Sequence record: PZ049338.1
Strand: one strand, 5' to 3'
DNA: 64,000 nucleotides
Source: a phage
Shown: piece after piece, positions 1 through 47,310 of the stretch
Numbering within the stretch: the first letter of the stretch is position 1
Layout of the letters: each line of letters starts with the position of its first letter
Made by a program: the position numbers and the translations under genes
The notes under the pieces: model-generated
What the model was told of the DNA's origin: nothing
The model's database searches: none
Seen by the model: the letters and a program-made list of their open reading frames with translations, nothing else

Positions 1-171
1 TTAGTAACGTGTACGAGTTACCGGATATTCGGCTTCACGCAGACGTCTCAGGTTTTCTTCAACCGGATTGGCTTGCTTGCGAGAAGCTAGGATGCGCTCA
101 CGGCGTTCAAGAGCATCTTCACGGTATCCGATAGTTGCTGGTAAGGACACAGCTACACGTTTCTTTTTCAT
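1..171 (-). CDS. small hypothetical protein (56 aa)
   Basis: Not in ORF track (<60 aa). ATG at 171-169 overlaps stop of upstream gene (ATGA), TAA at 3-1; translation MKKKRVAVSLPATIGYRE... Confidence 0.35.
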   Translation of the reverse strand: MKKKRVAVSLPATIGYREDALERRERILASRKQANPVEENLRRLREAEYPVTRTRY

Positions 172-539
172 TTTTTAGTACCTATGGTAGATAAGTCTAC
201 GTTTTTGTAAAATTGTGCAACCTGATAAGCGCGGTCGGCGATGGTTGCGTCAGGGATTGGTCCACGTTCCACACCAGCGTCACAGTAGTAACACTGGAGG
301 ATGCAAACTTGTAACGCATATTCACGTCGTTGAACCCAGATACGGAAGAAGGTGTCTAGCTCTTCGTCCGAGTAGCGCAAGTAAGGGTCTTGCTTGATGC
401 GCTCGATTGATTCAGGGTGCAATGGTAGTGGCTTGTTGCCACCCATCACGAAAGGATAAAGCTGTCGCAGCGAAGATAGGACACGCTTGTAGGTATCATG
501 CTCAATTTGGGTGAAGCGAATCGGCGTGTGAGCTTTCAT
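168..539 (-). CDS. hypothetical protein (123 aa)
   Basis: ORF track; co-oriented with neighbours in a packed minus-strand block. Confidence 0.55.
   Translation of the reverse strand: MKAHTPIRFTQIEHDTYKRVLSSLRQLYPFVMGGNKPLPLHPESIERIKQDPYLRYSDEELDTFFRIWVQRREYALQVCILQCYYCDAGVERGPIPDATIADRAYQVAQFYKNVDLSTIGTKK
279..290 (-). other. strand-specific 12-mer (TACTACTGTGAC on minus), exact copy 1
   Basis: exact 12-mer; shares 18-mer with copy at 2539. Confidence 0.6.
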
Positions 540-906
540 TTAATTTTTCCTTATTACGCTGACCGAACATGTAATACGAAGACCAGTTTGCAGTTTGTGC
601 ATTGCAAATTGGGGTGATAACATTAGTGCAACCATTCATCGAAGATGATAACTCGATTACACTTGCAATGGATTGGTTTACGTTGACACTGCCAGCGCCC
701 ATCTGGATTGCTTCAACATAGCCATCAAACATAATGTCTAAGCATTCTTGACGATCTGTTAAATCGTCAACCATATCACACACAGCAGCAGCATCAGAGT
801 TCATCATGTCAACGATGTTGGCTGGAATATCTACCGGAGGAAGTTCAGCGGTAGCAGGCACAGGGTGACAGGCAGAGATAAACAAGGCCAGCAGTAAACG
901 TTTCAT
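502..906 (-). CDS. hypothetical secreted protein with N-terminal signal-peptide-like segment (134 aa)
   Basis: N-terminus MKRLLLALFISACHPVPATA is hydrophobic; start overlaps upstream stop (ATGA). Confidence 0.5.
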   Translation of the reverse strand: MKRLLLALFISACHPVPATAELPPVDIPANIVDMMNSDAAAVCDMVDDLTDRQECLDIMFDGYVEAIQMGAGSVNVNQSIASVIELSSSMNGCTNVITPICNAQTANWSSYYMFGQRNKEKLNESSHADSLHPN

Positions 907-1214
907 ATAATGATTTCCAGAGATTTAAGGTGAACACGCTTGAGGTGTCCATCTTTGAATTTAACAATAACATACGGGGAGAAGTACGGAGCACTGTCAC
1001 TGTGGTATTCACAGAAGGCCGTATGTTCAGATGAATAGCGATACATCAGGTCACGGTTACGCAGAATGCGACGCTTAGTGAAGTCGAGCGCCAGACCTTT
1101 ATCTTTGAAGCCGAGCTTTTTCATCTCAGCTTGTACATGATTCCACACAGAATAACGCATTATCCACCCATCCCAACGAAAGTAATCAGACCGAAAAACA
1201 CACCGAAGGCGCAC
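903..1214 (-). CDS. hypothetical protein (103 aa)
   Basis: ORF track; tight coupling to downstream gene. Confidence 0.5.
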   Translation of the reverse strand: MRLRCVFRSDYFRWDGWIMRYSVWNHVQAEMKKLGFKDKGLALDFTKRRILRNRDLMYRYSSEHTAFCEYHSDSAPYFSPYVIVKFKDGHLKRVHLKSLEIII

Positions 1215-1247
1215 AATGAAATGACGCCAGCCACATGAGCACGCGCC

Positions 1248-1259
1248 GTCACAGTAGTA
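1248..1259 (-). other. strand-specific 12-mer, exact copy 2 (intergenic)
   Basis: exact 12-mer. Confidence 0.6.
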
Positions 1260-1649
1260 TTACGAGTTGCCATGAGTGATTACCTTAACCAGAGTGTTAA
1301 CGTGAATTGAAGTAACGTCGCCAGTTTCCAGAACTTTGCAGCGAATTTCGTCGAACGTGCTGTCAATTTCAAGAACTAAATAAGTTTCTTGATTATCACA
1401 ATGACGATGGTCACATGGACGGCAAACATCATTGACTGACAGCGCGCCAATGGCAATTGGTTTTACTTCATCGGATGGACGCAGACGGCACGCAGCATAG
1501 GCCGGGAACTTTGCAACAGTCTTGCTGATTTCATTGACAGCCAGAACATTGTCATGCTCGCCATACATACGGATGCAAACGTAGACAGTATCATCACTGC
1601 CTAGACTGAATCGGTCGCCTAAATTCAATTCGAACATTTCACGTTTCAT
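1260..1649 (-). CDS. hypothetical protein (129 aa)
   Basis: ORF track. Confidence 0.55.
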   Translation of the reverse strand: MKREMFELNLGDRFSLGSDDTVYVCIRMYGEHDNVLAVNEISKTVAKFPAYAACRLRPSDEVKPIAIGALSVNDVCRPCDHRHCDNQETYLVLEIDSTFDEIRCKVLETGDVTSIHVNTLVKVITHGNS

Positions 1650-1662
1650 AAATCCACCTGAA

Positions 1663-1827
1663 TTAAGATAATTTCAAATTAGTGCCAGCTACAGTCGCAC
1701 TGATTGCAGGCCATACAGCCAGAATAAAGAAAATACCAGCGATTAAATCACCGCCGAAAAGCCAGAAGAAGGCAGAAAGGAACAGAAAGAACACGCTCAG
1801 GATAATTTTCAATAACGTTTTCATCAT
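1663..1827 (-). CDS. small hydrophobic membrane protein (54 aa)
   Basis: Not in ORF track. ATGATG start at 1827 with GAGAGG Shine-Dalgarno upstream; translation MMKTLLKIILSVFFLFLSAFFWLFGGDLIAGIFFILAVWPAIS... gives two predicted TM segments. Confidence 0.4.
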   Translation of the reverse strand: MMKTLLKIILSVFFLFLSAFFWLFGGDLIAGIFFILAVWPAISATVAGTNLKLS

Positions 1828-1943
1828 GAACCTCTCATTCGTTGTTGGGAATAGTCACAGTAGTTGGCACTGGCGGTAATGATGCCAATACTTGAGCGGC
1901 ATAATCAGCCATGAATTTCATGTACTCAGCAGGTGTAAGCATA

Positions 1944-2153
1944 TTAAAACCCCCACACGTTATTGTAGTAAGCATCGCCAGACGGACGGGATGAATCAAG
2001 TCGTGACAAATCATCACGGCGCTTAATACGGGCTTTCATTGCAGCACGGGCGGCAGCACGCTTTTTATAGCTTGCCTTGTTCTTGCCACGGGGCACAGCT
2101 TGCCCTTTCATTTTCTGCAATGAAATCAAATCGTTATAGCGTTTACTTGCCAT
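1944..2153 (-). CDS. small basic (Arg/Lys-rich) protein (69 aa)
   Basis: ORF track; composition KRAAARAAMKARIKRRDD suggests nucleic-acid binding. Confidence 0.45.
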   Translation of the reverse strand: MASKRYNDLISLQKMKGQAVPRGKNKASYKKRAAARAAMKARIKRRDDLSRLDSSRPSGDAYYNNVWGF

Positions 2154-2508
2154 GACGTTTCCCCTTACTTGGTTTTACGTGACGTTTTTTGTGAGTATTG
2201 TACACGCGAGGCTCGGCCTTGCTTGCATTTTGGCGCGGTTTCTCAGCCTTAGCCGCTTTCATTTCTTCCGTGTATGTGCGCTCGTCGCCTAACTTGATGC
2301 GTACACCATTAACCACGGTTTTAAAACCAGTCTGACTAATCTGATAATGAAGACACTTGCGCTTCTGACCGTTCAACAATTTATGGACGGACTCGGACGC
2401 AGTTTTAGTACCGCCCACGGCTTGCAAAGATTGCTTGCGCTTTTTAATGCGTGGACGGTTGACTTTTACAGCGTAGATTGACGCGTTCATTATGAATTGA
2501 ACAGACAT
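2143..2508 (-). CDS. Lys-rich basic protein, possible DNA/RNA-binding (121 aa)
   Basis: ORF track; GAGG SD upstream of ATG; very basic C-terminus. Confidence 0.5.
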   Translation of the reverse strand: MSVQFIMNASIYAVKVNRPRIKKRKQSLQAVGGTKTASESVHKLLNGQKRKCLHYQISQTGFKTVVNGVRIKLGDERTYTEEMKAAKAEKPRQNASKAEPRVYNTHKKRHVKPSKGKRHGK

Positions 2509-2538
2509 AGTTGTGCCTCAAATCGGTTGGGTGGAGTC

Positions 2539-2550
2539 GTCACAGTAGTA
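2539..2550 (-). other. strand-specific 12-mer, exact copy 3 (intergenic)
   Basis: exact 12-mer. Confidence 0.6.
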
Positions 2551-2561
2551 ACACTGCGGCC

Positions 2562-2687
2562 TTACATGAACAGGGAAGCGAAGACACAAGCGGCAACGAT
2601 ACCACAAGCGAAGGTTAACCAGAATTTTGTAGTGCCTTCGTGAATGTCAACATCGCCATACTCGACGGTATACTTATTCTTGTTCAT
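2562..2687 (-). CDS. small protein with hydrophobic C-terminus (41 aa)
   Basis: Not in ORF track; ATG at 2687 preceded by AAGGTG SD; MNKNKYTVEYGDVDIHEGTTKFWLTFACGIVAACVFASLFM. Confidence 0.3.
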   Translation of the reverse strand: MNKNKYTVEYGDVDIHEGTTKFWLTFACGIVAACVFASLFM

Positions 2688-2757
2688 ATTAGTCACCTTG
2701 TCAGTTAAGTAATACTAATAAAGCCCATCATATAGATAGGCTTGATAGTGTCACTTG

Positions 2758-3378
2758 TTACGCAGCTTTCTTGCTTGCTGCCTTGCTGCGCAGTTCACGC
2801 ATATTTTCAGCGGTGAACAGATCGTTGATGGCTTTAATGGCCATGTTACGCAGTACATCGGTATTCGCGCCGTTCTCAATCGCTTGCTGCAATTGGGATT
2901 GGATAGACGAGCGGATTGATTTGGCGGACTTATCCAAATCATATGACTTAGCATCGCGCTCCTTAGTCTTATTGGTATGCAGCAGGGAAGAGTATTCCGC
3001 AGCTACGAAGGCTTTTACCGCGTTACGATATGCAACCTTCTGCTCCTTAGATACCGGAGCTTCACCTTTCGCCGCGTCATGTTTCCAGTTGGTTACGGTG
3101 TAGGCTTTTTCTTTCTTGTCTGCGGACGTGTTATCTTTATCCATTTTGATAACCAGTTTTGCCATAGTCGGCAGCAGGTCATTGATAACAGCACGTTGCA
3201 ATTGTGGGAAACGTTTAATTGCATTGATGAAAAATTCAATATTGGACGGATTGCAGGAGTCTTTACCCCAATAATCGGTCGCAACTACCTCAAAGGTTTT
3301 AACCAGACCGCGCGAACCTTCACGGAAGTTTTTAACGGATTCGATAATCAGCATTTGGGTAGCGTTCAATTTAGCCAT
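2758..3378 (-). CDS. hypothetical protein (206 aa), first sizeable gene of the leftward unit
   Basis: ORF track; GAGGAA SD 9 nt upstream of ATG at 3378. Confidence 0.6.
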   Translation of the reverse strand: MAKLNATQMLIIESVKNFREGSRGLVKTFEVVATDYWGKDSCNPSNIEFFINAIKRFPQLQRAVINDLLPTMAKLVIKMDKDNTSADKKEKAYTVTNWKHDAAKGEAPVSKEQKVAYRNAVKAFVAAEYSSLLHTNKTKERDAKSYDLDKSAKSIRSSIQSQLQQAIENGANTDVLRNMAIKAINDLFTAENMRELRSKAASKKAA

Positions 3379-3434
3379 GATAATATTCCTCGTTGTTTAC
3401 ATTGATTGAGTTATGAATCAGCACGATTCGATAA

Positions 3435-3466
3435 ATAGCCCACGCATCATGGGAATTATGGGCTAT
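3435..3466. other. inverted repeat (ATAGCCCA ... TGGGCTAT) just upstream of the first leftward gene
   Basis: 8-bp arms read directly; possible operator or RNA structure. Confidence 0.35.
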
Positions 3467-4238
3467 TCGAATCATCACTATTTGCGACTTGTCCAGTCGC
3501 CGGACTGATGCGCGCCTGATGGATACGGGGGCGAGTACCTTTTCACTTTACACATCAAATTTTACTCCCCGACTATCTGCGAATTAAAGATTAATCAGTG
3601 TTAATTGACGCAGTGACACGCCTCAAACGAGATAATCAACCATTGAAATCAATCAAGGCCGATTAAATAAAACTTGTCGTTGTTGTGCTACGTTGTCGCA
3701 TTCTTTATATAATCTTTCGGTAGTCTTAGTTGTGAGTAGGTAGAATTTTCATTCATTCGCTATCACTATTCGATTACGCGGCCTCTCGGCCTATCATCTT
3801 TTCAATCACTAGCCCACTTATTCTATTCAGTGAGATACCAAATTAACACTATACCGACGCTTAGATGTATAGATGATGTTCTAGTCTGGTTAAATCAGTC
3901 TTTACTTTGATGGCAACATGACACGTTGTGTAAACCGCTGGCACTTAAGCCGTCACGCATTGCGTTTTACGCCACCTTTTCAACCTTCCTTGCAAGCCTT
4001 GCGACTTTTAAGGTCGGGGCAAACTACTCCGGCTAAGTATTCAGTGTCTTATGTTTCCCACTGTTACCCGCTTTCGTCAATAAGCCGTAATTTAAAACCA
4101 TCCGTTAATCAGGTATGATTGCCACATTGTCGGGGGGAAGTATCCGACTGATGTTTACCGTTGGTTATACGGCGGGCTATTGCCCCTTAAGGTGCGGCCT
4201 ATGTGGTAGGCTGCCTTTGATGGGTAATGATTAACCTA

Positions 4239-4248
4239 TCCCATCTAT
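4239..4248 (+). promoter_or_regulatory. TCCCATCTAT motif copy 1
   Basis: exact 10-mer, repeated 4 times in the control region. Confidence 0.35.
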
Positions 4249-4269
4249 TTACTACTGGATAACTAATCT

Positions 4270-4292
4270 AGTTAATCCACATATATTAAGAG
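4270..4292 (-). promoter_or_regulatory. 23-bp repeated element, inverted copy (CTCTTAATATATGTGGATTAACT on minus strand)
   Basis: 1 mismatch to copies at 25156-25178 and 47913-47935. Confidence 0.4.
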
Positions 4293-4315
4293 ATAATCCC
4301 TTAATACGTCCTACT

Positions 4316-4351
4316 TAAAACATTCTAGGTTATCCCTTCCTACCTTGTCAA
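4316..4351 (-). promoter_or_regulatory. sigma70-type promoter P1 (leftward): -35 TTGACA 4351-4346, -10 TAGAAT 4327-4322, 18-nt spacer
   Basis: hexamers read directly; AT-rich upstream. Confidence 0.5.
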
Positions 4352-4426
4352 CCTTACTTAGAAAATTCTTTCTTCTGGTTGACTCACCTGATAGTTACTT
4401 GGCTATTCAGCTTCACTATCTGGTAT

Positions 4427-4463
4427 GTGGTAGATTATAGGTTTAACCTTTCTACCTTGTCAA
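4427..4463 (-). promoter_or_regulatory. sigma70-type promoter P2 (leftward): -35 TTGACA 4463-4458, -10 TATAAT 4439-4434, 18-nt spacer
   Basis: consensus hexamers; shares CTACCTTGTCAA context with P1; AT-rich UP-like region. Confidence 0.6.
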
Positions 4464-4683
4464 TAAGATATTTTAATTTATCTTGCTGACCTTTACTACC
4501 TATCAGGCTTTCGCGTTGTTGCTGCGTCGTCCTGATATGATTAACTATACGCAATCTTTTCAGATATGCAAACTAATATTTTAATTATTTTCTAACTTTC
4601 TTTCATCTCACTGATTTATAACGGATTATTTCTTGATATTCTTTCTTGATTCAGTGGATAAGATACGGGATACGGCTTATCTA

Positions 4684-4693
4684 TCCCATCTAT
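4684..4693 (+). promoter_or_regulatory. TCCCATCTAT motif copy 2
   Basis: exact 10-mer. Confidence 0.35.
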
Positions 4694-4894
4694 AGCGTCA
4701 CCTTTCCACCTGGACAAATTGGAACATCAATCACCTTATCTATTCCCTACCTTTCCAGCTCATAGATTCATGCCTGATTGATGATCTTTCTTGTGAGCTG
4801 GAAGCTAAGAGATAACACCGCATGAATTAAAACTAGATAAAGGGCACTAGATAGAAACATGCGGAACGTTATCCCATACGTCTTAATTGCTATT

Positions 4895-4932
4895 ACACGG
4901 AAGAAAGGAAAGGAAGAAAGGAAGAAAGGAAG
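4895..4932 (+). repeat. polypurine tract (GGAAGAAAGGAAAGGAAGAAAGGAAGAAAGGAAGA)
   Basis: read directly. Confidence 0.7.
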
Positions 4933-5040
4933 ATACACCATACGGATTAATGCTTATCAAACTATCGTCGGGTAACGGTGCAATGATTAAGATTGATGCG
5001 ACCAATGGTCGTGTTATGACCTGCGGTCATGCGTACCTAT

Positions 5041-5198
5041 TATCAAAGTCAACAATCAAACGATGATTATCAAAGACGATTATCAAACGATAACTATCAA
5101 AGACGATTATCAAACGATAACCATCAAAGGATAACTATCAAAGGATAACTATCAAAGGATAACTATCAAAGGATAACTATCAAAGGATAACTATCAAA
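5041..5198. repeat. tandem array, about 12 units of 13-14 bp with core TATCAAAG/C (5 perfect GGATAACTATCAAA units at 5129-5198)
   Basis: read directly; iteron-like. Confidence 0.85.
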
Positions 5199-5803
5199 GG
5201 CTGGCATTTTAAACACCGACGTTTTAGCCTCACAAAATAACGGGAAGAAATATAGCTCAGGATACTTACTATTAGTAAGAACATAACCATGCTGGTTATT
5301 ATTACCATGCTATCTATGCGATGGCTTATCATTAGGTAGCTAACTATAACATCGTGCATCATATTCCATTGGTATCATTAGATGACTAATCATGTGCGTG
5401 CATAGTATATCACTTGAGATAATAACGCATGAATACTATATCACTTCCCATTATCAGCGGAGGTATATTAATCCCGTGAACTAATAGCCAACTAATTACT
5501 TATGATATAGTTGCCAATGTTATTAATAGATGAGGTATGGTATCATTTGTATATTAATAATAAGCAAGCTATCTATTCACTGGATGCAATTACAGTATTG
5601 TGCTTCATCCAATAGGCTGTATAATCGTTGTTACATTGTTAACGGTATATGTGCCGACCCACTTCCCCCTTTTTAAAAGTTGTGTGCGCAGCTAGCCCCC
5701 TATACCACCGCGTGAGAGTATGAGAATGAGGATACCCTAACCAATTAATGGGTGAGAGTGATTGCCCGTGGGTATGACCTCCCATCAGACAGTACTCATG
5801 ACC

Positions 5804-5813
5804 TCCCATCTAT
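5804..5813 (+). promoter_or_regulatory. TCCCATCTAT motif copy 3 (GACCTCCCATC also at 5776-5786)
   Basis: exact 10-mer. Confidence 0.35.
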
Positions 5814-5872
5814 CAGTGTCAGTAGAGGCCGAAGGCCTTGGTCTTACCAAAGGTAAGTGACTTCCCATCTAT

Positions 5873-5882
5873 TTTCACTTTC
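5873..5882 (+). promoter_or_regulatory. TCCCATCTAT motif copy 4
   Basis: exact 10-mer. Confidence 0.35.
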
Positions 5883-5896
5883 TTTCAGTGTAAACA

Positions 5897-5920
5897 GTGT
5901 AAATCTGTAAGAAAATTGAA
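5897..5920 (+). promoter_or_regulatory. repeat TTCAGTGTAA-N-TCTGTAA copy 1 (candidate late promoter or packaging-related element)
   Basis: near-identical copy at 6168-6188; TAATCTGTAAG also at 12433-12443 upstream of capsid gene. Confidence 0.3.
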
Positions 5921-6167
5921 AATTTTGAACTAAAGTTCATGTACGAAGGAGATAGAGATTGATAAGAGATTCTTAAACAGTTTCTTATATATCTCCTTCT
6001 TATCCATTCTTATATATCCTCTCTTCTCTCCTCTATAAAAGCCCCTCTTATATTTAAAAATCCATAAACCAATTACGCTGAACAAGAAGAAAGTATAAAG
6101 GAGGTTATGACCTTCCATCTGATTGATAAGATGAGTACCCATCAACTATTTTAATCTTTTCAGTGTA

Positions 6168-6188
6168 AGTCTGTAATGTTTTCCATTT
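6168..6188 (+). promoter_or_regulatory. repeat TTCAGTGTAA-N-TCTGTAA copy 2
   Basis: see copy 1; about 135 bp upstream of first late gene. Confidence 0.3.
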
Positions 6189-6322
6189 ATCAGTGCTATA
6201 TGTAACTGTAGCATCTATAAGGTTTATGTAATTAATAAATAGATAGATGGGTGGATGGTGGGAACTACATTCGCTGGAAGCGAAACTATTGCTTCTGGCA
6301 ATTATTAATTGAAGGAGTGAAC

Positions 6323-6709
6323 ATGTCTGACAATAACGAATTACTTGATTCCATTGTTGAAGGTCGCTCCGTCAAGACTGGACAGTTTGTGAAGGGTAAT
6401 ACTCAAGGTAAGGGCCGTCCGAAAGGTAGCCGAAACAAAATGACTCAACGAATGTTGAATCGTGTTGCTGAACGAAGTGAAGATGGTTTGTCTATGGAAG
6501 AAATCATGATGGATATCGCCCAAGACCCTCAAATGCCAGCAGAGCTTCGCTTTAAAGCAGCAGCTAAAGTTTCTGACCTCGTTTATCCTAAAGCATCTTC
6601 TGTTGAAGTTAAGATGGACGATAAAGAAAGCATGACTAAAGAACAGATTGATGCTCGCCTTAAAGCTTTGCTTAGTGGTGGCCATACAACTGAAGACACT
6701 GAGGACTAA
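6323..6709 (+). CDS. putative DNA-binding protein / terminase small subunit candidate (128 aa) with AT-hook-like GRPKGSR motif
   Basis: start moved to internal ATG 6323 (GAAGGAG SD); sits 2 genes upstream of large terminase; function by position only. Confidence 0.4.
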   Translation: MSDNNELLDSIVEGRSVKTGQFVKGNTQGKGRPKGSRNKMTQRMLNRVAERSEDGLSMEEIMMDIAQDPQMPAELRFKAAAKVSDLVYPKASSVEVKMDDKESMTKEQIDARLKALLSGGHTTEDTED

Positions 6710-6711
6710 AT

Positions 6712-6948
6712 ATGATTGGACTGATATTTGATATTCTTATTCCACGCTTCCGTACTTCTGATTTTTGCCTTGAGGGTAATGATGCTGAAGGTTATGACGC
6801 TGTGTGTGAATATACGTCACGAGATGTAGGAGAACGCTTCGATAAGATAGCAAGTATCAGTTACTTTCAACTCTTCGGGTTTGTTCTGTTTCCTAAAGTA
6901 CATCTAGATTCGATTCGTACGTTTACAAGAGAAGACGTACTGAAATAA
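6712..6948 (+). CDS. hypothetical protein (78 aa)
   Basis: ORF track; SD GAGGA in end of preceding gene. Confidence 0.4.
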   Translation: MIGLIFDILIPRFRTSDFCLEGNDAEGYDAVCEYTSRDVGERFDKIASISYFQLFGFVLFPKVHLDSIRTFTREDVLK

Positions 6949-7276
6949 ATTCCTTGCCAGCCAGCGAGGTTGACTTTCGTCGGGTAAGTCGTGAAAGAAC
7001 CCGACCGCGAATTCAAAGTCTAGCTAGGGTGACAAGAGTATGACAGGCTGTCCTAGATAAGTGTCGGTACTCAACTAGATGTTGTATTGGATGTTAGGTA
7101 AGTCAAGAGAGACAAGCCACGGTCGGGGTCGTCCACGTTAAACATTAAAACCCCGCCCCTCGAATACACGACTGAAGATTTTCCAAATGACTAAAGGTTC
7201 AGAAAATTTTGCAGTTGCCGCTTTGCGGATTAGGGTGAGAGCCCTCGAAAGGTTTATAGTATACACGGAGGTAAGG

Positions 7277-8761
7277 ATGGATTTTAATGAAATCGACTTA
7301 GACTCCCTTCCGGAACATATCAAGTGGGAAATTATTGACTTACTAGAGGAAAGGGAAAGGGTCATTAAATATAATCGGATTAACGAATTCGAACCCTACG
7401 AGTTCCAAAAGAATTTTTATTCTGCAAGTGCTAAATTCAAAAGACGCTTCCTTTGTGCGGCTAACCGAGTTGGTAAGTCTTACTCTGAAGCGGTAGAAGT
7501 GTTTTATCATTTGTCAGGTCTGTACCCTGAATGGTGGGACGGACACAGATTTAAGAAACCAATCCTCTTATGGGCTGTTGGTATCACCGGTGACTCAACT
7601 CGAAAGGTGTTGCAGAAGGAGTTGTTTGGTACACCGATGGGCAAAGACCAAGATGCATTGGGAACAGGCGCTATCCCTCGTGACCTGATTGACATTGAGA
7701 ACATCGAGAAAGACGGTAACATCATCAAAATCGCAAAGGTTAAGCATCATGATAAAAATGGTGACTTTGATGGTTGGTCTACTATCGAATTCCGCTCAAC
7801 TCAACAGGGTGAGCACGTACTGATGGGTGCGACTGTAGATTATATATGGTTAGATGAAGAAGACCCGTTCAAGTCTATGGAAATCTATGCACAGTGCGTT
7901 ACTCGTACTGCTACTACTGGTGGTTTGATTACCATCACCGCTACTCCTGAGAACGGTTTGACGAAACTGGTAGACCTGTTCATGAAAGACACGTCAGGTT
8001 ACTTATATTTTCAGAATGCGACATGGGATGATGCTCCCCACTTAGATGAAGAAACTAAAAAAGAGTTGTTAGCATCTATTCCGACATGGCAGCACGAAAT
8101 GCGAAGCAGGGGGATTCCAATGATGGGCGAAGGTTTGATTTACGATATTGCAGAGTCTTCTATTATTACAGAGCCGATTGAGATTCCATCTCACTGGCGT
8201 AGACTTGCAGCAGTTGATATTGGTATCAGTCACGATACTGCGGTTGTATGGACAGCTTACGATGCTGCTACTGACTGTATCTATGTATATGACTGCTACT
8301 CAGCAGATGCGGGCGTTCCTGCTATGCACGCTACAGCTATTAATGCTCGTGGCAACTGGATTCCTGTTATTCTTCCACACGATGCTGATAACACTGAACG
8401 TGGTTCAGGTCGTAGTGTCGCGTCTTATTATGCAGAGGCTGGTGTCAACGTGATGCCTGAGACGTTCTATAATCCACTGGATTGGACGGGTAAGAAGAAT
8501 AACTTCGTAGAACCGGGCATTATGGAAATCCTTCAAAGGATGAAGACTGGTCGCTTTAAAGTGTTTAGCACTTGTGGCAAGTTCTTCGAAGAAATGCGTC
8601 GTTATCACCGTAAAGATGGCAAGATTGTCAAAGAATTCGATGATACAATGGACGCAGCACGATATTCAGCACTCTCAGTAATTGGACGTGGTGTAAGTGC
8701 AGGTGAAGCAAGTGCTGGCTACAATGCAGCATTCAATGATAACTGGAATTACAATTACTAA
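7277..8761 (+). CDS. terL: terminase large subunit (ATPase/nuclease)
   Basis: start moved to ATG 7277 (GGAGG SD); Walker A-like AANRVGKS; about 495 aa; position upstream of portal. Confidence 0.8.
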   Translation: MDFNEIDLDSLPEHIKWEIIDLLEERERVIKYNRINEFEPYEFQKNFYSASAKFKRRFLCAANRVGKSYSEAVEVFYHLSGLYPEWWDGHRFKKPILLWAVGITGDSTRKVLQKELFGTPMGKDQDALGTGAIPRDLIDIENIEKDGNIIKIAKVKHHDKNGDFDGWSTIEFRSTQQGEHVLMGATVDYIWLDEEDPFKSMEIYAQCVTRTATTGGLITITATPENGLTKLVDLFMKDTSGYLYFQNATWDDAPHLDEETKKELLASIPTWQHEMRSRGIPMMGEGLIYDIAESSIITEPIEIPSHWRRLAAVDIGISHDTAVVWTAYDAATDCIYVYDCYSADAGVPAMHATAINARGNWIPVILPHDADNTERGSGRSVASYYAEAGVNVMPETFYNPLDWTGKKNNFVEPGIMEILQRMKTGRFKVFSTCGKFFEEMRRYHRKDGKIVKEFDDTMDAARYSALSVIGRGVSAGEASAGYNAAFNDNWNYNY

Positions 8762-12429: not shown

Positions 12430-12580
12430 TGGTTAATCTGTAAGGGTTTTATGATAAACGTACTAGAATAGTATGTTAACAACAAGGAAATGCCTTGTGT
12501 GTTCAACAAAGAGTAACGAACGTGTTCGTGCTCACTGAGCCGCAAGGCAAACAACAATATTATCAGAGGAGAATTCTCTA

Positions 12581-13546
12581 ATGGCAGATACTACTTTAGT
12601 TTCTTATGACCTGAATGGTAAGAAACTTTCCTTTGCAAACTGGATTTCTAACCTGTCTCCTACCGAGACCCCGTTCGTTTCCATGACTGGCAAAGAAGCA
12701 ATTAATCAGACTCTGTTCCAATGGCAGACTGATACGCTGGAAACCGCTAACCCGAACAACGCAGTTGTTGAAGGTTCTGCTGCTGAAGCTCCAGTTCGTA
12801 GCTCTACCACTGTACTGAACAACGTTACTCAGATTCTGCGTAAAGTGGTTCGTGTTTCTGATACCGCAAACGCTCTGGCGAACTACGGTCGTGGTCAGGA
12901 ACTCCAGTACCAGATGGAAAAAGCTGGTAAAGAAATCAAGCGTGACCTCGAAGTTGCTCTGCTGCGTAACGGCGCTAAAGTTGACGGTAACGGCACTACT
13001 GCTCGTAAGACCGCTGGCTTTACTGCTCTGGTTGCTGCTAAAGGTGTAGCTGACCCGGACACTGGTGCTGTTGTTCATAAAGAGACTGCTGTTAAGTCTA
13101 AGATTTCTGAAGCAGAACTGTTTGACCTGACGTACAACCTGTACCTGTCTGGTTCTAACGCGAACATCATCATGTTCCACCCGAAACACGCAAGCTTCTT
13201 CGCTTCCCTGATGGACACTCCGGCTGCTGGTACTAACCGCATGAAGATGTTCGACGGTAGCGATACTAAGTTTAACCAGTATGTTTCTAGCGTAGTTGAC
13301 CCGCTGGGTCAGTTGTACAAGCTGATTCCTAACCGTTGGATGGATGAGACTGAGATCTACTTCTTCACTCCTTCTGACTGGGATGCTGCTCGAATGGATT
13401 GGGGTAGTCGTGGTACTACCACTGTTGCTGGTGCTCACGAACACGCATTGCGTATTACTGGTGGTATCTTCTCTCAAGGTGATAACCAGAAGCACAACAA
13501 CATTCAACCATTCATTACTGTATATATGTGGCGTCGCATTTCTTAA
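12581..13546 (+). CDS. major capsid protein (321 aa)
   Basis: position after scaffold, GAGGAG SD, size typical; not motif-verified. Confidence 0.65.
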   Translation: MADTTLVSYDLNGKKLSFANWISNLSPTETPFVSMTGKEAINQTLFQWQTDTLETANPNNAVVEGSAAEAPVRSSTTVLNNVTQILRKVVRVSDTANALANYGRGQELQYQMEKAGKEIKRDLEVALLRNGAKVDGNGTTARKTAGFTALVAAKGVADPDTGAVVHKETAVKSKISEAELFDLTYNLYLSGSNANIIMFHPKHASFFASLMDTPAAGTNRMKMFDGSDTKFNQYVSSVVDPLGQLYKLIPNRWMDETEIYFFTPSDWDAARMDWGSRGTTTVAGAHEHALRITGGIFSQGDNQKHNNIQPFITVYMWRRIS

Positions 13547-16770: not shown

Positions 16771-17631
16771 ATGGGTAATATCTTATCAGCAATCACAGAT
16801 GGTGCTTTGGATTCTATCAAAAGCCCCCTTAAGGTTGTAAAAGACATTGGTAAAGGTGATTTCAGCGGGGCATTTAAAAACCTCAAACACATTCCCGGTA
16901 ACCAAGAACGTGCTAACAAAGAGATTCTTCAATCTGCTGGTGTCCGAGGTTGGGTTGGTGACTATCCCGGTGAAAGTGCTGCTGCAATAGTTGGTTCTAT
17001 CTTTGGCGGTGCAGCCCTTATGGGTGGTGGAGCAGCCGCAGCCGGTGGTGCTGGGGCAGCAGGTGCTGGAGGTGCTGCGGGTGGTTCTGCTGCTCTTGGT
17101 GGTGCAGGTGCTGCCGGATATTTAGCACCTACTGCTGCTGGAGGTGTTGGTGCCACAGGTGCTGGCAGTAGCTTAGTATCTACAGGTGCTCTCTCAGCTA
17201 TCAGTTCCCAAGCCCCATCTACTGCTGCACTGTTACAGATGGGTAATGCTGGGGTTGGTGCATCTACAGCAACTGCTGGTGCTTCGTCCTTTACTCCTGC
17301 AATGTTAACAACTCAAGGTGCTGCTGCATCTGGCGGTACTTATGGTGCTGCTTCTGCTCCTGCAATTGCATTGCAAACACCTGCTGCCGGTGGTGCTTCT
17401 GCTGGAAGCTCTACAATGTCAAACCCTGAAACTTGGAATCAAATCTCTAAACTTGTGAACAGTGTTAAAAAACCAGAGCAAGAGAACCAAACACTTGCAC
17501 CTGTTCCAATGGGTTCGGGACATCGAGGTAACTTCAACTTCGACCGTAAGAATTTCCAAAATCAGGCACTAACTCAAACGTATGGTGAACTTTATAATAA
17601 ACCTACGAAAACACCGAATATTAAATTCTAA
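16771..17631 (+). CDS. Gly/Ala-rich low-complexity virion protein (286 aa)
   Basis: AGGAG SD; long GA-rich tract. Confidence 0.45.
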   Translation: MGNILSAITDGALDSIKSPLKVVKDIGKGDFSGAFKNLKHIPGNQERANKEILQSAGVRGWVGDYPGESAAAIVGSIFGGAALMGGGAAAAGGAGAAGAGGAAGGSAALGGAGAAGYLAPTAAGGVGATGAGSSLVSTGALSAISSQAPSTAALLQMGNAGVGASTATAGASSFTPAMLTTQGAAASGGTYGAASAPAIALQTPAAGGASAGSSTMSNPETWNQISKLVNSVKKPEQENQTLAPVPMGSGHRGNFNFDRKNFQNQALTQTYGELYNKPTKTPNIKF

Positions 17632-23866: not shown

Positions 23867-24085
23867 TTGTAAGGTGTTGCAAATTATGGCACTAATATAG
23901 TTTGTGACACACTTGCAGATTCACCGTACCTGAATAGGACTTGATAATGAACGAATATAAACTTCCTTCGAACAAAGATAAAGATTTCTGGGAACGTAAT
24001 AACGAATCTCGGAAAGAAAGCAAAATCACCAAAAAGAAGGGAGATAAAAACCCTTGGACTCCATACCGGAGTTGGTAACCTTTAC

Positions 24086-25114: not shown

Positions 25115-25155
25115 TTAAAAGTTTGTAAGATAATTAGAAATGTTAAGTAGAATTA

Positions 25156-28858: not shown

Positions 28859-29956
28859 TTATTCAATTGGATTTCCTTCTGCATCACATTCGCGGACGTA
28901 GAGTCCGACAGGGAACTGTGGTAAGCCATCGTTAGTGAGGGCTTGGTATTTGTAGGTAATCCATTTACCAAGGAGTTTAACTTGGCTATCATATTTCCGA
29001 AAATCATGTCCACCACGCATTTTACACTTGAAGTAATTCTTAGTACCCTTCATCTGGCAGACGAGTACACCCTCTTCATTAAGGTCTTTCTCAACGTGTG
29101 TTACGAATGCCTCAGCATCCTGCATTAACTTCCACTTCTGTAAGTTATGAGAGCGATGATTGAACTCGTAAAGACCATTCACATTACGAAGCATCATACC
29201 TTCATATCCATCATTAATGAATCTGTTCAGTAGAATCTGAGCAGAGATTTCATTATTGACTAAGATGTTAGGTACAACCTTGATGAACTGAGTTCTTACT
29301 TTAGTAACATCAGCAAGCATGTCATGTCGTGTTTCCCAAGTCACATCTGACACTGGAATATCAAACACATGGAACTCAAGTCGTGATGTATCTTTGTTAG
29401 GCTTCTTAGCCGCACTGACGATGTTTTGAAGAGGTAGTCCGTGGATGTACAACTCACCATCCAGCTTAGTGAATCCTGTCCGTTCAGATACGTCAATGAT
29501 TTCTTTCTTTAAATGCTCATGGCAGTCATATGTCTTACCGCCTCGGCTATGGAGGATAACCCCTTCATGAGTGATCTCAGCAATGCATCGAAGCCCGTCA
29601 AGCTTAGGAGAAACGTAGCAAGGCCAACTAATACGATGTCCCACTTTTGTATAATCGTGGGCCAACATGGGGAGGATTTCTCCGACACCCATCGCTTCCT
29701 CAACAGTGGGTCGGTAGCATTTATCGATTTGTTTGTTGTATTTTGATTCAGCTTCCAACAGAGCTTGTTCTTGTGCTGTCGTTTCATTTGCACGTCCTAC
29801 ATTCTTAGGCTTAGCAACAGTCTCCTTGATTTGCATCTTACCACCAAGACGACCATGTGTGACAATAACAGTATCATCAGAGACTCCGACAGTCCAAATC
29901 TTAATGTTACCCTTCTTGTCCTTAGCAAACAACTCTTTACAATAAACCATTCTCAA
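28859..29956 (-). CDS. ATP-dependent DNA ligase
   Basis: adenylation motif KLDGLR; 365 aa. Confidence 0.8.
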   Translation of the reverse strand: MRMVYCKELFAKDKKGNIKIWTVGVSDDTVIVTHGRLGGKMQIKETVAKPKNVGRANETTAQEQALLEAESKYNKQIDKCYRPTVEEAMGVGEILPMLAHDYTKVGHRISWPCYVSPKLDGLRCIAEITHEGVILHSRGGKTYDCHEHLKKEIIDVSERTGFTKLDGELYIHGLPLQNIVSAAKKPNKDTSRLEFHVFDIPVSDVTWETRHDMLADVTKVRTQFIKVVPNILVNNEISAQILLNRFINDGYEGMMLRNVNGLYEFNHRSHNLQKWKLMQDAEAFVTHVEKDLNEEGVLVCQMKGTKNYFKCKMRGGHDFRKYDSQVKLLGKWITYKYQALTNDGLPQFPVGLYVRECDAEGNPIE

Positions 29957-31476: not shown

Positions 31477-32046
31477 TTAACTCTGGAAGTTTACTGATTC
31501 TCTGTCAATGTTAGCGACTAATTGACTTCGAATACGATGGAGACTGACGTAAATGTTATTTGAAGACATGCCATACTTATTGGCAACATCTTTAGTCGTG
31601 AGGTTCTTCAGGTAAACATCGGTGAACAATTCACGTTCTGATTCCTTAAGAGTCTCAAAAGCTCTCTGAACAAACGAGGAAGCTTCATCGGCTAGTAACT
31701 CACGAACAGGGTCAGTTAACCCATTATCATGGCATTCAAATTCGAGGACATTATCGTACATCTCCGTATCAACTCTGTCGAACTCTCGGCGTACATAACC
31801 ATAACGAACATTGTTCGCAATAGTACCTATAACACCGCCTAACTTATCCCACTGGATTCTGTCCCAATACTGCCAAATCCTTAGCAGAGTTTCTTGAGCC
31901 AAATCTTCAGCCAGATGGTAATCTTTTTCCATGTAGTAGAATTGTTTCTGGAGAGGTTTCCAGAACTCTTCGTACAACTCTTCAAAAGTATATGTTTCTC
32001 GTTTTGGAGTAGGGGCACTAATTCTCTTAGCCATCATACATTCCAT
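31477..32046 (-). CDS. ECF-type sigma factor (regions 2 and 4)
   Basis: DLAQETLLRIWQYWDRI (region 2-like) and LTTKDVANKYGMSSNNIYVSLHRIRSQL (region 4 HTH). Confidence 0.7.
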   Translation of the reverse strand: MECMMAKRISAPTPKRETYTFEELYEEFWKPLQKQFYYMEKDYHLAEDLAQETLLRIWQYWDRIQWDKLGGVIGTIANNVRYGYVRREFDRVDTEMYDNVLEFECHDNGLTDPVRELLADEASSFVQRAFETLKESERELFTDVYLKNLTTKDVANKYGMSSNNIYVSLHRIRSQLVANIDRESVNFQS

Positions 32047-33049: not shown

Positions 33050-33144
33050 TATTTAATATCCTTATTAATTAATCTCAATGTTGAGAGAACTGTTTATATC
33101 TCTCGCTCAGTTGTATATAGATTAGTGTAAGATAACTGAAAATC

Positions 33145-33576
33145 TTACATACTTTCTTGCATTATTTGAGAGCGACTAACACCATCAAAGTAACAAAAAT
33201 CGCCCACAATATTGCTATTAATATGGTATACTTCATTGAGGTTCTCACCTGTACGCTTGTGATAGTGATGGCAGATAGCTTTGTGAGCACAAATCAACCG
33301 ACTCATGAACGCATACACATGGCTCCTGCCGTATGTACGACCATCCACTGTAGATGATTTCGTATTCACAAACCTGTCAACAGCGTCATACTCTATCACT
33401 GGTAACATTCTTAGTGCAACAAATAGTGCATTGGTTGATGAAGGGCGGGAATGTCCCGAGTTCGCCGCCCCGTATAACACATCCTGCAACCAACCACTAA
33501 GTTCATGGAGTTCATCAAAGTTAGAAAACAGGGACTGAATACAATGATTATCTAAATGGACTGTAGGACGTGACAT
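33145..33576 (-). CDS. hypothetical His/Cys-rich protein (143 aa)
   Basis: ORF track. Confidence 0.5.
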   Translation of the reverse strand: MSRPTVHLDNHCIQSLFSNFDELHELSGWLQDVLYGAANSGHSRPSSTNALFVALRMLPVIEYDAVDRFVNTKSSTVDGRTYGRSHVYAFMSRLICAHKAICHHYHKRTGENLNEVYHINSNIVGDFCYFDGVSRSQIMQESM

Positions 33577-44081: not shown

Positions 44082-44264
44082 TAACTATCCTTAGTCTTCG
44101 TCGTTGTCGTTAAAGCGGAATGGGTCGGAGCATTCAATTACCCCAGCGTCTTCGTCTAAGCGAAAGGTCATTCCTGCAATTTCAAAATCGGAGTCCATCA
44201 TGTGTTATTCCTTAACAAGAGGCCACACTTATTATAGTGACCTCTAGAGAGTATCCTTACACCG

Positions 44265-44771: not shown

Positions 44772-46568
44772 TTAGAATGGTCGACTATCATCACGACTGA
44801 CTTCATCAGAGTCAGGCTCCTCTCCCGGGATAGAGAAAGGATTCTTAGGGTCATACTCATCAGCAGTACGCTGTCTCAATCGACCTGTAACTGGGTTATA
44901 GGAAGTTGGGACAATACCTGTCTGACCGAAGTTACGGTCTTTCAGGAGACGAATCTGAGACAAGTTACGAGCATCACCATCTGCCTGCTTGTTACGCTCA
45001 AAGCCCAGAATTAACTGGGAGAATCGCATAAGAGCACGCGAACCTGTGAACTGCACTTCCTGAACCTGACCACCTTCCTCGTGCGGAGCACCAGTTTTAG
45101 GTGGGTTCAAGTGACTGAATACGAAACATGTGAACTCCAGTTCGTTACACAGTCCAGCCAGTTCTACAGCAATACGAGCAACTTCGGTGTTAATCTCAGT
45201 CGCTGATAAGTGTGATACCAGTGCGGTGATGTTATCTAAGAAGATGAACTTCACACCATGCTCCACAACCCAGAAACGCATACAGCGTTTGATATCTTCC
45301 CAATCATTCTGACCAAAGTTCCGGTAAAGGAACAGATGGCCATCATACTTCAGAGCTTCACTCTTAAGCAGTTCAGGGTCGAACTCAACATCTGGGCGAT
45401 GGAAAGGTATATTAGCAGATTTACCTGCGATGTTTTTGATTGTGTTACCTACAGTCTCTTCCAACATGAAAGCGCCCACTTTCTCTTTGTGGACGTTAAT
45501 GAGGTGAGCACTAAGTTCGTGAGCAAGCAGTGTTTTACCACCACCCACACCACCACCAATTGCAATCACTTCACCATATCGGAGACCGAAGGTTAACTCT
45601 GTAAGACCTTCCCAAGGGAATGATAAACCCCACTCAGGCTTCTTCAGCGCATCTTCCAGACACTCAGCTACAGTCGTTGAGCCAGCCGGAGATTCTTTTG
45701 CAGCATTGAAGCGTAAGCAGTTATTAAGTTCGAGGTCACGACCGTCCATGAGGAGGTCATTAGCGTCCTTAATTGGAGCACCATCTTTACGGAACCCTTT
45801 AGGGATTCGGGCAATCTTAATGTTCGGATACATCGCTCGAATCTTGTTCACAGCATCATCACCAGCTTCATCGTTATCCATGCAGACAACAACTTCAGCG
45901 AATGATTCTACGAATGCACGGTCACGAGAGAACGCAGCCGCTGCTGATTTCGAGCCATCCGGTAAAGAAACACATGCTGGTTTGTATGTACTCTTAGAGT
46001 TCTCTGTCAATACCTGAAAACCAGACATTGCACTGAGTTCGTCTTCAAATACAAACAACTTACCTGTGTACACATCACCAAGACGTGCTTGGGACATACC
46101 GAAGAAACTACAACCTGATGCTGCACCTACAGCATAAAAACCTTTAGGTTCTAAGGTGCGAACTTTGTAAGCACGGATTGCTCCGTCCTTTTCCTTCGGG
46201 TAAAACTGAGAGATAGGTTCCCGGTTAGTGGATGAAAGACCAATACGAACACCAAAACGTTCGGCAACTTCTTTCTTCACACCACGAATGGTGCAGTTCT
46301 GAATAGGAAGCTCTTGGACTTCCGCTAAACGTTCTTGTACTTCTTCCTCGGTCAGTTCACGGAATTCATGACGAACTCCTTCCCACTTCTCGCGGTTACC
46401 TTCTTCAACCTGTTCGTAAAAACCATCACGACTACAGTAAACCCACTGCTCGCCGGTCTCAACATTTTCCCAATGCTGAAGATGGTTGCCAGTTCGGTCA
46501 TGGCCTGCTGCCGTACAGGTTGGACATGCAGAATCACCAAGGATTCTTTTGTTTCCATAAACTTTCAT
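44772..46568 (-). CDS. primase-helicase (Zn-finger + TOPRIM + DnaB-like helicase)
   Basis: N-terminal CPTC Zn finger, TOPRIM-like CMDNDEAGDD, Walker A GGGVGGGKT. Confidence 0.8.
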   Translation of the reverse strand: MKVYGNKRILGDSACPTCTAAGHDRTGNHLQHWENVETGEQWVYCSRDGFYEQVEEGNREKWEGVRHEFRELTEEEVQERLAEVQELPIQNCTIRGVKKEVAERFGVRIGLSSTNREPISQFYPKEKDGAIRAYKVRTLEPKGFYAVGAASGCSFFGMSQARLGDVYTGKLFVFEDELSAMSGFQVLTENSKSTYKPACVSLPDGSKSAAAAFSRDRAFVESFAEVVVCMDNDEAGDDAVNKIRAMYPNIKIARIPKGFRKDGAPIKDANDLLMDGRDLELNNCLRFNAAKESPAGSTTVAECLEDALKKPEWGLSFPWEGLTELTFGLRYGEVIAIGGGVGGGKTLLAHELSAHLINVHKEKVGAFMLEETVGNTIKNIAGKSANIPFHRPDVEFDPELLKSEALKYDGHLFLYRNFGQNDWEDIKRCMRFWVVEHGVKFIFLDNITALVSHLSATEINTEVARIAVELAGLCNELEFTCFVFSHLNPPKTGAPHEEGGQVQEVQFTGSRALMRFSQLILGFERNKQADGDARNLSQIRLLKDRNFGQTGIVPTSYNPVTGRLRQRTADEYDPKNPFSIPGEEPDSDEVSRDDSRPF

Positions 46569-46635
46569 GACTTAATCCTTTTCCATGTCATTAAGCTTGC
46601 TGCGGGTATTACTTAGTGCCTTAGGTTAGATAACA

Positions 46636-47310
46636 TTACAGAGTGTCATAGTAGTCTGCGCGATTATGCAGACACCAGTCACCCGACTCAACACGGTTAC
46701 TGTCGCCTTGGTCTTCATCAATGTGATAAATCCAAGCCTTTGCGAAGGAACCATCATCCAGTTGGATTTCAACCTGCGTACGGTTATAGAAACCATTCTC
46801 AGGGTCACAGGCACTGTACCCTTCCAGCATGTCGTATGCACCAGTCAGACCTTCCAGAGGTGCTTCAAATACATCAACAACAACCTGCTTGCCAGACTTG
46901 TTAGCCTTAAGGTTCACGGAAGGGAAGTAGGAGCCACCGTAGCGATATAAATCGAACTGGTCTACAGTCACACCCTTACTTACAAATTCACCGCCGCCAC
47001 GAGCGTTTACGTGGAAATTCTGCATGTTGCGACGCAGAGAGCCATAAGTTGCGATGAATACTTTACCGTCTGAAGGAATTACTAAGTTCTTTGACATTAC
47101 TTGTCCTGTTTTAGGTTGTAGATAATATTTAACTTCGACAAATCGCCATGTGTTCTGGAGGTTCTCTGCCATTTCTTTTGCTTCTGGGTAAGTTAAGCCA
47201 CAGCCAAGCTGATAACCTTCCTCACCCTTACTCATGCGACCAATCAGTAAATAACGAACTTCATGGTCACCTGTTAGTGGTTCTTTAATTGAGAGCTTCA
47301 TCTTATACAC
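46636..47310 (-). CDS. gamma-glutamyl cyclotransferase-like (AIG2/GGCT fold) domain protein
   Basis: FIATYGSLRR ... DMLEGY ... YNRTQV fits GGCT pattern. Confidence 0.55.
   Translation of the reverse strand: MYKMKLSIKEPLTGDHEVRYLLIGRMSKGEEGYQLGCGLTYPEAKEMAENLQNTWRFVEVKYYLQPKTGQVMSKNLVIPSDGKVFIATYGSLRRNMQNFHVNARGGGEFVSKGVTVDQFDLYRYGGSYFPSVNLKANKSGKQVVVDVFEAPLEGLTGAYDMLEGYSACDPENGFYNRTQVEIQLDDGSFAKAWIYHIDEDQGDSNRVESGDWCLHNRADYYDTL

Follow-up and report, generated by a model that had tools for sequence, protein, structure and literature searches.

The 2.8-kb non-coding region of this Grimontviridae phage contains two copies of a short element, and the question they raise is whether they are promoters for a phage-encoded sigma factor, mark the boundary of a terminal repeat, or have some other origin. 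The stretch of DNA analysed here, 64,000 nucleotides in length and hereafter the window, is approximately 93% identical in the promoter region to Salmonella phages PKM.Hi.22.6 and PKM.Lu.22.1 (PKM.Hi and PKM.Lu below), with Salmonella phage 7-11 as a more distant relative. An earlier note on this DNA had placed the elements upstream of the late operon, and the downstream genes are indeed those for the large terminase, portal, scaffold and major head proteins (Table 1). The true start of the first gene, here gene 1, is the ATG at 6323, which is preceded by GAAGGAG. We conclude that the two elements are very probably the upstream halves of tandem late promoters, a distal P0 and a proximal P1, that would be read by the sigma factor of the phage.

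Table 1. Predicted late promoters of the window and the genes and sequence features around them, in order of position
Feature	Position	Strand	Description
Early-type genes	1-3400	minus	
Non-coding region, 2.8 kb	3479-6250		separates divergent early and late blocks; directly 5' of packaging genes
(T)GACCTCCCATC(TAT) box array	5775-6262		direct copies at 5775-5789, 5799-5813, 5858-5872, 6108-6122 and 6134-6146
Distal element	5884-5911	+	exact 9-bp tandem duplication (CAGTGTAAA)x2 at 5886-5903, then TCTGTAAG
P0 -35 box GTAAGA, predicted	5907-5912	+	GTAAGA-(16)-ACTA; PWM 15.6 bits, rank 6 in window
P0 -10 box ACTA, predicted	5929-5932	+	spacer exactly 16 bp
P0 transcript start, predicted	~5938-5941	+	from the 6-9 bp rule of PMC8948821
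Proximal element	6157-6178	+	T-tract, -35-like upstream copy CAGTGTAAG (6161-6169), then TCTGTAATG
P1 -35 box GTAATG	6173-6178	+	homologue of 7-11 P1 (GTAATG at 1637-1642); PWM 16.7 bits, rank 5
P1 -10 box GCTA	6195-6198	+	16-bp spacer; CTA invariant in 9 phages
P1 transcript start, predicted	~6204-6207	+	from the 6-9 bp rule of PMC8948821
Stem-loop at 5' end of P1 transcript	6212-6249	+	stems CATCTAT (6212-6218) and ATAGATG (6243-6249), 24-nt loop
Inverted copy of (T)GACCTCCCATC	6242-6262		in P1 leader
Late block		plus	starts with gene-1 homologue, then large terminase, portal, scaffold, major head
First late-operon gene	6323-6709	+	homologue of phi32_6 / 7-11 gene 1 (DUF5681-like)
Late promoter 5' of major head gene, predicted	12439-12465	+	TGTAAGG-(16-bp spacer)-ACTA; homologue of 7-11 P8 (7-11 position 8366); 23.2 bits
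Major head gene	12581-13546		phrog_1328
Late promoter within 3' end of structural gene, predicted	17546-17571	+	homologue of 7-11 P22; GTAAGAATTTCCAAAATCAGGCACTA vs GTAAGGCTTTCCAAAATCAGGCACTA in 7-11
Late promoter, predicted	23868-23894	+	homologue of 7-11 P28; 24.6 bits, top match; AAGTAATTGTAAGG shared with 7-11 at 29211
Phage sigma factor gene	31477-32046	minus	Pfam Sigma70_r2 and Sigma70_r4_2; phrog_1740
Late promoter, predicted	33123-33149	-	5' of phi32_40 homologue and sigma gene; homologue of 7-11 P48
Late promoter in replication-gene block, predicted	44235-44261	-	18.8 bits; homologous 7-11 consensus site at 52205
Late promoter 5' of primase/helicase gene (44772-46568), predicted	46614-46640	-	15.5 bits

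The strings on which the earlier note was based occur verbatim in the window, although at other coordinates: the distal TTCAGTGTAAACAGTGTAAATCTGTAAG lies at 5884-5911 instead of 5897-5920, and the proximal TTTTCAGTGTAAGTCTGTAATG at 6157-6178 instead of 6168-6188. The reported copy upstream of the capsid gene, TAATCTGTAAG, is likewise present, 137 nt 5' of the major head gene and with its position off by one base (12434-12444). The 16-mer CAGTGTAARTCTGTAA is found exactly twice in the 64 kb, at 5895 and 6161 and thus 266 bp apart, and no third copy exists in the window even when three mismatches are allowed. Counted across the window, TCTGTAA occurs 20 times (12.2 expected) and CAGTGTAA five times (2.9 expected). 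As this enrichment of words is weak, it is conservation and a wider bipartite motif that argue for a real feature. The repeat is non-random, as seen from the retention of both copies at the same positions in phages of other genera, from a local excess of CAGTGT (4 copies in 5770-6270 vs. 0.16 expected) and from the distribution of the bipartite pattern described below.

In phage 7-11, the sigma factor SaPh711_gp47 directs host core RNA polymerase to promoters with the consensus GTAAtg-(16)-aCTA, and transcription starts 6-9 bp beyond the promoter sequence (PMC8948821). Eight late promoters of this phage (P1, P8, P12, P16, P22, P28, P48, and P69) were mapped by Lavysh et al. 2022 (PMC8948821), who combined primer extension and KMnO4 probing with in vitro transcription using purified gp47. 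The sigma factor of the window is 82% identical to SaPh711_gp47 over 181 aa, region 4 included (E = 5e-120), both elements contain the gp47 consensus GTAAnn-(16)-nCTA, and the proximal element aligns base for base with 7-11 P1 at the same position. This homology to mapped promoters bears out the earlier proposal of a late-gene promoter for an ECF-type phage sigma factor, and the copy upstream of the capsid gene aligns with 7-11 P8. With a cognate sigma orthologue, a bipartite consensus with 16-bp spacer and genome positions homologous to 7-11 promoters, the elements are predicted new instances of an already characterised gp47-type promoter class. The motif proposed earlier, CAGTGTAA-N-TCTGTAA, captured this promoter only in part: its 3' TGTAA(G/T) is the -35 box, but the CAGTGTAA half falls outside the consensus, and the -10 box (A/G)CTA located 16 bp downstream had been overlooked. 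Alongside the orthologous sigma factor, consensus, spacer, and positions that they share, the two systems differ in that the window lineage has TCTGTAA where 7-11 has (A/T)GTGTAA, in the upstream -35-like copy (CAGTGTAAG in the window vs. CAGTGTATCAG in 7-11), and in the extra 9-bp duplication at the distal site of the window, whose promoters are predicted from the sequence.

Our confidence differs between the two sites. P1 is almost certainly a late promoter; its TTTCAG, TGTAAT and CTA are invariant among nine phages of five lineages, and its flanks vary. P0 is probably a late promoter as well, as a conserved prediction: a consensus site 315-440 bp 5' of the gene-1 homologue occurs in PKM.Hi, PKM.Lu, 7-11 (at 1369), GAP52, ECO319P1 and BUCT695 and also in P59, Privateer and CsaP_009, and the tandem layout of P0 and P1 recurs in the PKM phages, Moazamivirus, Crifsvirus, Libingvirus and Privateervirus. 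In pSal-SNUABM-01, the -35 box at the P0-homologous site is degenerate (TGCAAG). The window, the PKM phages and 7-11 all have the same sequence, TTTGAACTAAAGTTCATG, at the -10 region of P0. No gene follows P0 directly, gene 1 starting approximately 385 nt away. The template used to validate 7-11 P1, located through its published primers at 1571-1838, includes only the 1637 site, leaving the P0 homologue at 1369 outside, and the latter is not in the list obtained from the pattern search of the 7-11 authors. Because P0 is conserved in five lineages and lies outside the tested 7-11 template, it represents a small new prediction. A leaderless small open reading frame at P0, suggested by a conserved CTA-N6-ATG, was considered and rejected because the downstream frames are not conserved (7 aa in the window, 15 aa in 7-11, and an immediate stop in P59).

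No plus-strand match to a host sigma-70 promoter (TTGACA-(16-18)-TATAAT) lies over either element; the nearest sigma-70-like match on this strand is 9/12 at 6123-6152, and a minus-strand match, also 9/12, overlaps the proximal element. Two near-perfect sigma-70 promoters are present on the minus strand at 4351-4322 and 4463-4434, aimed leftward at the early genes (TTGACA-18-TAGAAT and TTGACA-18-TATAAT, 11/12 and 12/12, within a 30-nt direct repeat). They are likely the counterparts of the early promoters validated in 7-11 ahead of gene 151. The same non-coding region holds approximately 10-12 tandem copies of a 14-bp unit, GATAACTATCAAAG, at 5045-5214, with a purine tract, GGAAAGGAAGAAAGG, ahead of them at ~4905-4932; these tandem repeats may be iterons or origin-like repeats.

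The distribution of the bipartite motif across the window provides a further line of evidence. TGTAA-N19-CTA has seven matches in the window against 2.7 +/- 1.7 in shuffled sequences, and all seven are intergenic or at most 4 nt from the upstream stop codon, on the sense strand of the local gene block. Such gene-end, sense-strand positions make up about 5% of the position-by-strand space, which by our own arithmetic gives a binomial chance of ~1e-9. Relaxing the pattern to GTAA-N19-CTA adds the 7-11 P22 homologue at 17546 and two weaker sites. When a PWM trained solely on the eight validated 7-11 promoters was applied to the window, the top ranks were taken by nine sense-strand sites, among them 12440 (second), 6173 (fifth) and 5907 (sixth). 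The best score in shuffled sequence, 16.0 bits, overlaps the 15.6-16.7 bits of P0 and P1 as single sites; a single site thus carries conviction only when its conservation and position are considered as well, and the argument is cumulative. Promoters P1, P8, P22, P28 and P48 of 7-11 each have a positional homologue among the window sites. The 7-11 genome itself contains GTAAGN-(16)-ACTA sites at 1369 (+) and 52205 (-), outside its eight published promoters, and both have conserved homologues in the window. The sequence TGTAAGATAAT at 25120-25140 (+), just past the late-operon terminator in a convergent intergenic region, is also conserved with 7-11 (~30460), and no CTA is found there at the right spacing.

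The CAGTGTAA half of the element is missing from the other seven predicted promoters of the window. In the nine-phage alignment, the spacing between CAG and TGTAAT at P1 is 0, 8, 16 or 18 nt: it is 0 nt in GAP52, ECO319P1 and the metagenomic locus L050, where CAGTGTAAT itself is the -35 region, 8 nt in the window, the PKM phages, 7-11 and pSal-SNUABM-01, and 16-18 nt in BUCT695 and P59. Given this variable distance, the most plausible origin of the CAGTGTAA half is a tandem duplication of the -35 region by slippage, with TTTCAGTGTAAT as the ancestral form. L050, the sole new locus from a search of viral contigs for gene-1 relatives, carries the single-copy form CAGTGTAATG-16-GCTA. The window has an extra exact 9-mer at the distal site, where PKM.Hi, PKM.Lu and 7-11 have one CAG(T/C)GTAAA copy. 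We also considered the upstream GTAA copies as alternative -35 boxes and rejected them because none has a CTA at 15-17 bp. A scan of IMG/VR with CAGTGTAANTCTGTAA returned 31 single matches, which were dismissed as chance occurrences since none showed BLAST similarity to the window.

From the match to the consensus, its spacing, the homology to 7-11 and the distribution of the motif we infer that transcription initiates at these sites in the following manner. The two-domain sigma factor of the phage would bind host core RNA polymerase, its region 4 reading the -35 boxes GTAA(G/T)N and its region 2 reading and melting the -10 boxes (A/G)CTA, with transcription expected to start 6-9 bp past the latter (Table 1). 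The earlier note had supposed that transcript starts coincide with its motif; by the 6-9 bp rule, they are instead expected ~30-35 nt downstream. Initiation at P1 would yield an mRNA whose leader of ~117 nt has a conserved stem-loop at its start and which continues into the packaging and head genes, whereas P0 would give rise to a longer transcript running through a CT-rich spacer and P1. The CAGTGTAA half would then contribute one or two additional -35-like boxes, located 8-9 bp upstream, rather than a recognition element.

Of the seven pairs in the stem at the 5' end of the P1 transcript, four show compensatory changes, and 100% of cells are paired in seven phages (RNAalifold and pair counts on an alignment of the window, PKM.Lu, 7-11, pSal-SNUABM-01, GAP52, ECO319P1 and BUCT695). 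This hairpin begins just past the predicted P1 start, which fits transcription of the region from there. The spacer between P0 and P1 (5939-6100) is CT-rich in all genera. For the P0 transcript, folding predicts a 5' hairpin of GAAGGAGATA with TATCTCCTTC in the window (z = -3.4), 7-11 and P59 but none in GAP52 or BUCT695, so we draw no conclusion from it. A 32-nt insertion at 6268-6299, absent from the PKM phages and 7-11, contains an 11-bp hairpin just 5' of the ribosome-binding site of gene 1. No tRNAs were found in the window, and Rfam at permissive thresholds gave zero matches in 3300-7300.

P0 and P1 share more than a promoter, in that both belong to a common module of ~55 nt composed of CCCATC, a T-rich tract, CAGTGTAA, and TCTGTAA. 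Boxes of the (T)GACCTCCCATC array flank both promoters and are conserved in other genera; further boxes of this kind occur at 4240 and 4685. Within 500 nt there are four copies of CCCATC and one inverted copy, again vs. 0.16 expected, CCCATCTAT has exactly six copies in the window, five of which fall in 4240-6251 of the non-coding region, and the composite box TATGACCTCCCATCTATCAGTGT is conserved across genera. Positions 6111-6123 are complementary to 6250-6262 in the leader, such that P0 transcripts, and not P1 transcripts, could form a long-range helix. As the pairing is kept via one-sided changes only, RNA pairing and a protein-binding site are indistinguishable here. Finally, a dyad, TGAACTAAAGTTCA at 5926-5939, spans the -10 box and predicted start of P0 and may be an operator; its symmetry is kept with other bases in GAP52 (TGAGCTAATACTCA) and P59 (TGTACTAACGTACA), through two compensatory changes. 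Promoter function alone does not account for the CAGTGT and CCCATC words and the P0 dyad.

One explanation for these words is that CAGTGT(AA) and CCCATC are sites for a DNA-binding protein, either a late-gene regulator or a small terminase encoded just downstream, which the promoters merely overlap. The local excess of both words, the clustering of CCCATCTAT, the conservation of TATGACCTCCCATCTATCAGTGT, the shared module and the compensated dyad all speak for such an array. It would account for the element's 5' half and is compatible with the promoter explanation. However, the words are missing from the other seven predicted late promoters, the distance of 0-18 nt between CAG and the -35 box in different genera argues against a fixed composite site, slippage could explain the upstream copies, the extra exact 9-mer is missing in the PKM phages, and we identified no candidate binding protein; we regard this explanation as unlikely. 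A related and still more doubtful idea draws on T7, whose phiOL and phiOR are phage-specific promoters near the genome ends, read by a single-subunit RNA polymerase. P0 resembles them in being phage-specific, in its lack of an adjacent gene and in its location near the packaging genes or genome-end region. By this analogy, and by that with the T7 origin promoters, P0, the CCCATC/CAGTGT array, the dyad and the CT-rich spacer might together form a transcription-dependent cis site for replication initiation or for concatemer processing and packaging; the small terminase, or else a protein of replication or regulation, would then bind the boxes. The T7 polymerase is of a different type, however, and a role of P0 in replication or packaging is a speculative analogy. 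The third possibility, a chance or neutral low-complexity duplication devoid of function, would agree with the window-wide enrichment of TCTGTAA and CAGTGTAA of only ~1.6-1.7x and with the lineage-specific extra 9-mer at the distal site, but both sites are conserved across genera whose nucleotide sequences are otherwise strongly diverged, and the motif is confined to gene ends on the sense strand, so that the probability we assign to it is negligible.

The earlier note had also considered a terminal-repeat boundary, and the two copies could in principle delimit a direct terminal repeat or a packaging cut-site region of the T7 or phiEco32 type. Their location in the non-coding region between divergent blocks, just 5' of the packaging genes, would suit this role, related Kuravirus phages have repeats of 193 bp, or <200 bp, and 266-275 bp separate the copies in the window as well as in 7-11. 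This is nevertheless highly improbable, with the bipartite motif present at seven other internal sites before late genes and the proximal copy homologous to a mapped promoter. Nor is there convincing similarity to the phiEco32 repeat: comparison of its 193 bp with window positions 3400-6400 yielded a lone common 12-nt block, TCCCCCTTTTTA at 5664-5675, ~210 nt 5' of the distal element, which together with a short stretch after it (5664-5696, ~190-210 nt 5' of that element) reached a score of 13 that was matched by 5/500 shuffles. Privateer has been reported with 'novel ends', the 55-bp overlap between start and end in the ECO319P1 record looks like an assembly artefact, and the linear records of BUCT695 and 7-11 contain no start/end repeat, these comparisons being made on related genome records that are circular or arbitrarily opened. 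The window, 7-11 and BUCT695 share a conserved non-coding block, CTTCCCCCTTTT...CCCCCTATACCACCGCGTG(A/T)GAG (window 5655-5720), and the TCCCCCTTTTTA within it is found in phiEco32 as well, 30 nt away from the inner edge of the terminal repeat; the block may offer a weak lead to the location of the genome ends. A last alternative takes the elements for single-element promoters of the phiEco32 type with a TGTAA core, read by a gp36-like sigma factor; the consensus of these promoters (PMC4281155, PMC12276001, PMC8948821) is a single conserved tAATGTAtA located 6-8 bp upstream of the start. In favor of it are the common TGTA core and positions that correspond to those of phiEco32 late promoters. 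Yet TAATGTATA has no exact match in the window and 14 matches with one mismatch (17.8 expected), none of them at the elements, the window sigma is of the gp47 type (82% identity), gp47 being only ~15% identical to gp36, and a second conserved box stands at a fixed 16-bp distance in all sites. Motif search, sigma type and second box refute this alternative, to which we attach almost no probability.

What remains of the resemblance to phiEco32 is the general arrangement, in which a phage sigma factor redirects host RNA polymerase to sites before the phi32_6 homologue and inside the structural block. The phiEco32 promoters consist of a single element and have no -35 box, in contrast to the bipartite gp47 class, and their sigma factor is unrelated to the gp47 type; the phiEco32 co-regulator gp79 is absent from the 7-11 group (PMC8948821).

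The gp47-type promoters that we favor here can also be set against those of bacteria. In promoters of bacterial ECF (group 4) sigma factors such as sigma-E, the core of the -35 box is AAC and that of the -10 box CGT or TCT, and ~16 nt separate the two boxes. The predicted window promoters share with them a bipartite structure with a rigid spacer of ~16 bp and a two-domain sigma factor made up of regions 2 and 4 only, whereas their boxes differ (GTAA and CTA vs. GGAAC and CGTC/TCTGA) and no anti-sigma factor is evident in the phage.

With nine predicted sigma-dependent promoters, the late transcription units of this phage, whose PKM.Hi.22.6/Lu.22.1-like group has been described as plasmid-dependent, can be annotated directly. 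The gp47 promoter class, demonstrated so far only in 7-11, would extend to at least five lineages (four Grimontviridae genera and the unclassified PKM-like phages) on the basis of their gene-1 GTAA-(16-bp spacer)-CTA sites. While this leaves the understanding of late-gene regulation in these phages unchanged, it adds to published knowledge a conserved distal promoter, as a prediction, a conserved array of upstream boxes, and a 5'-UTR hairpin backed by covariation.
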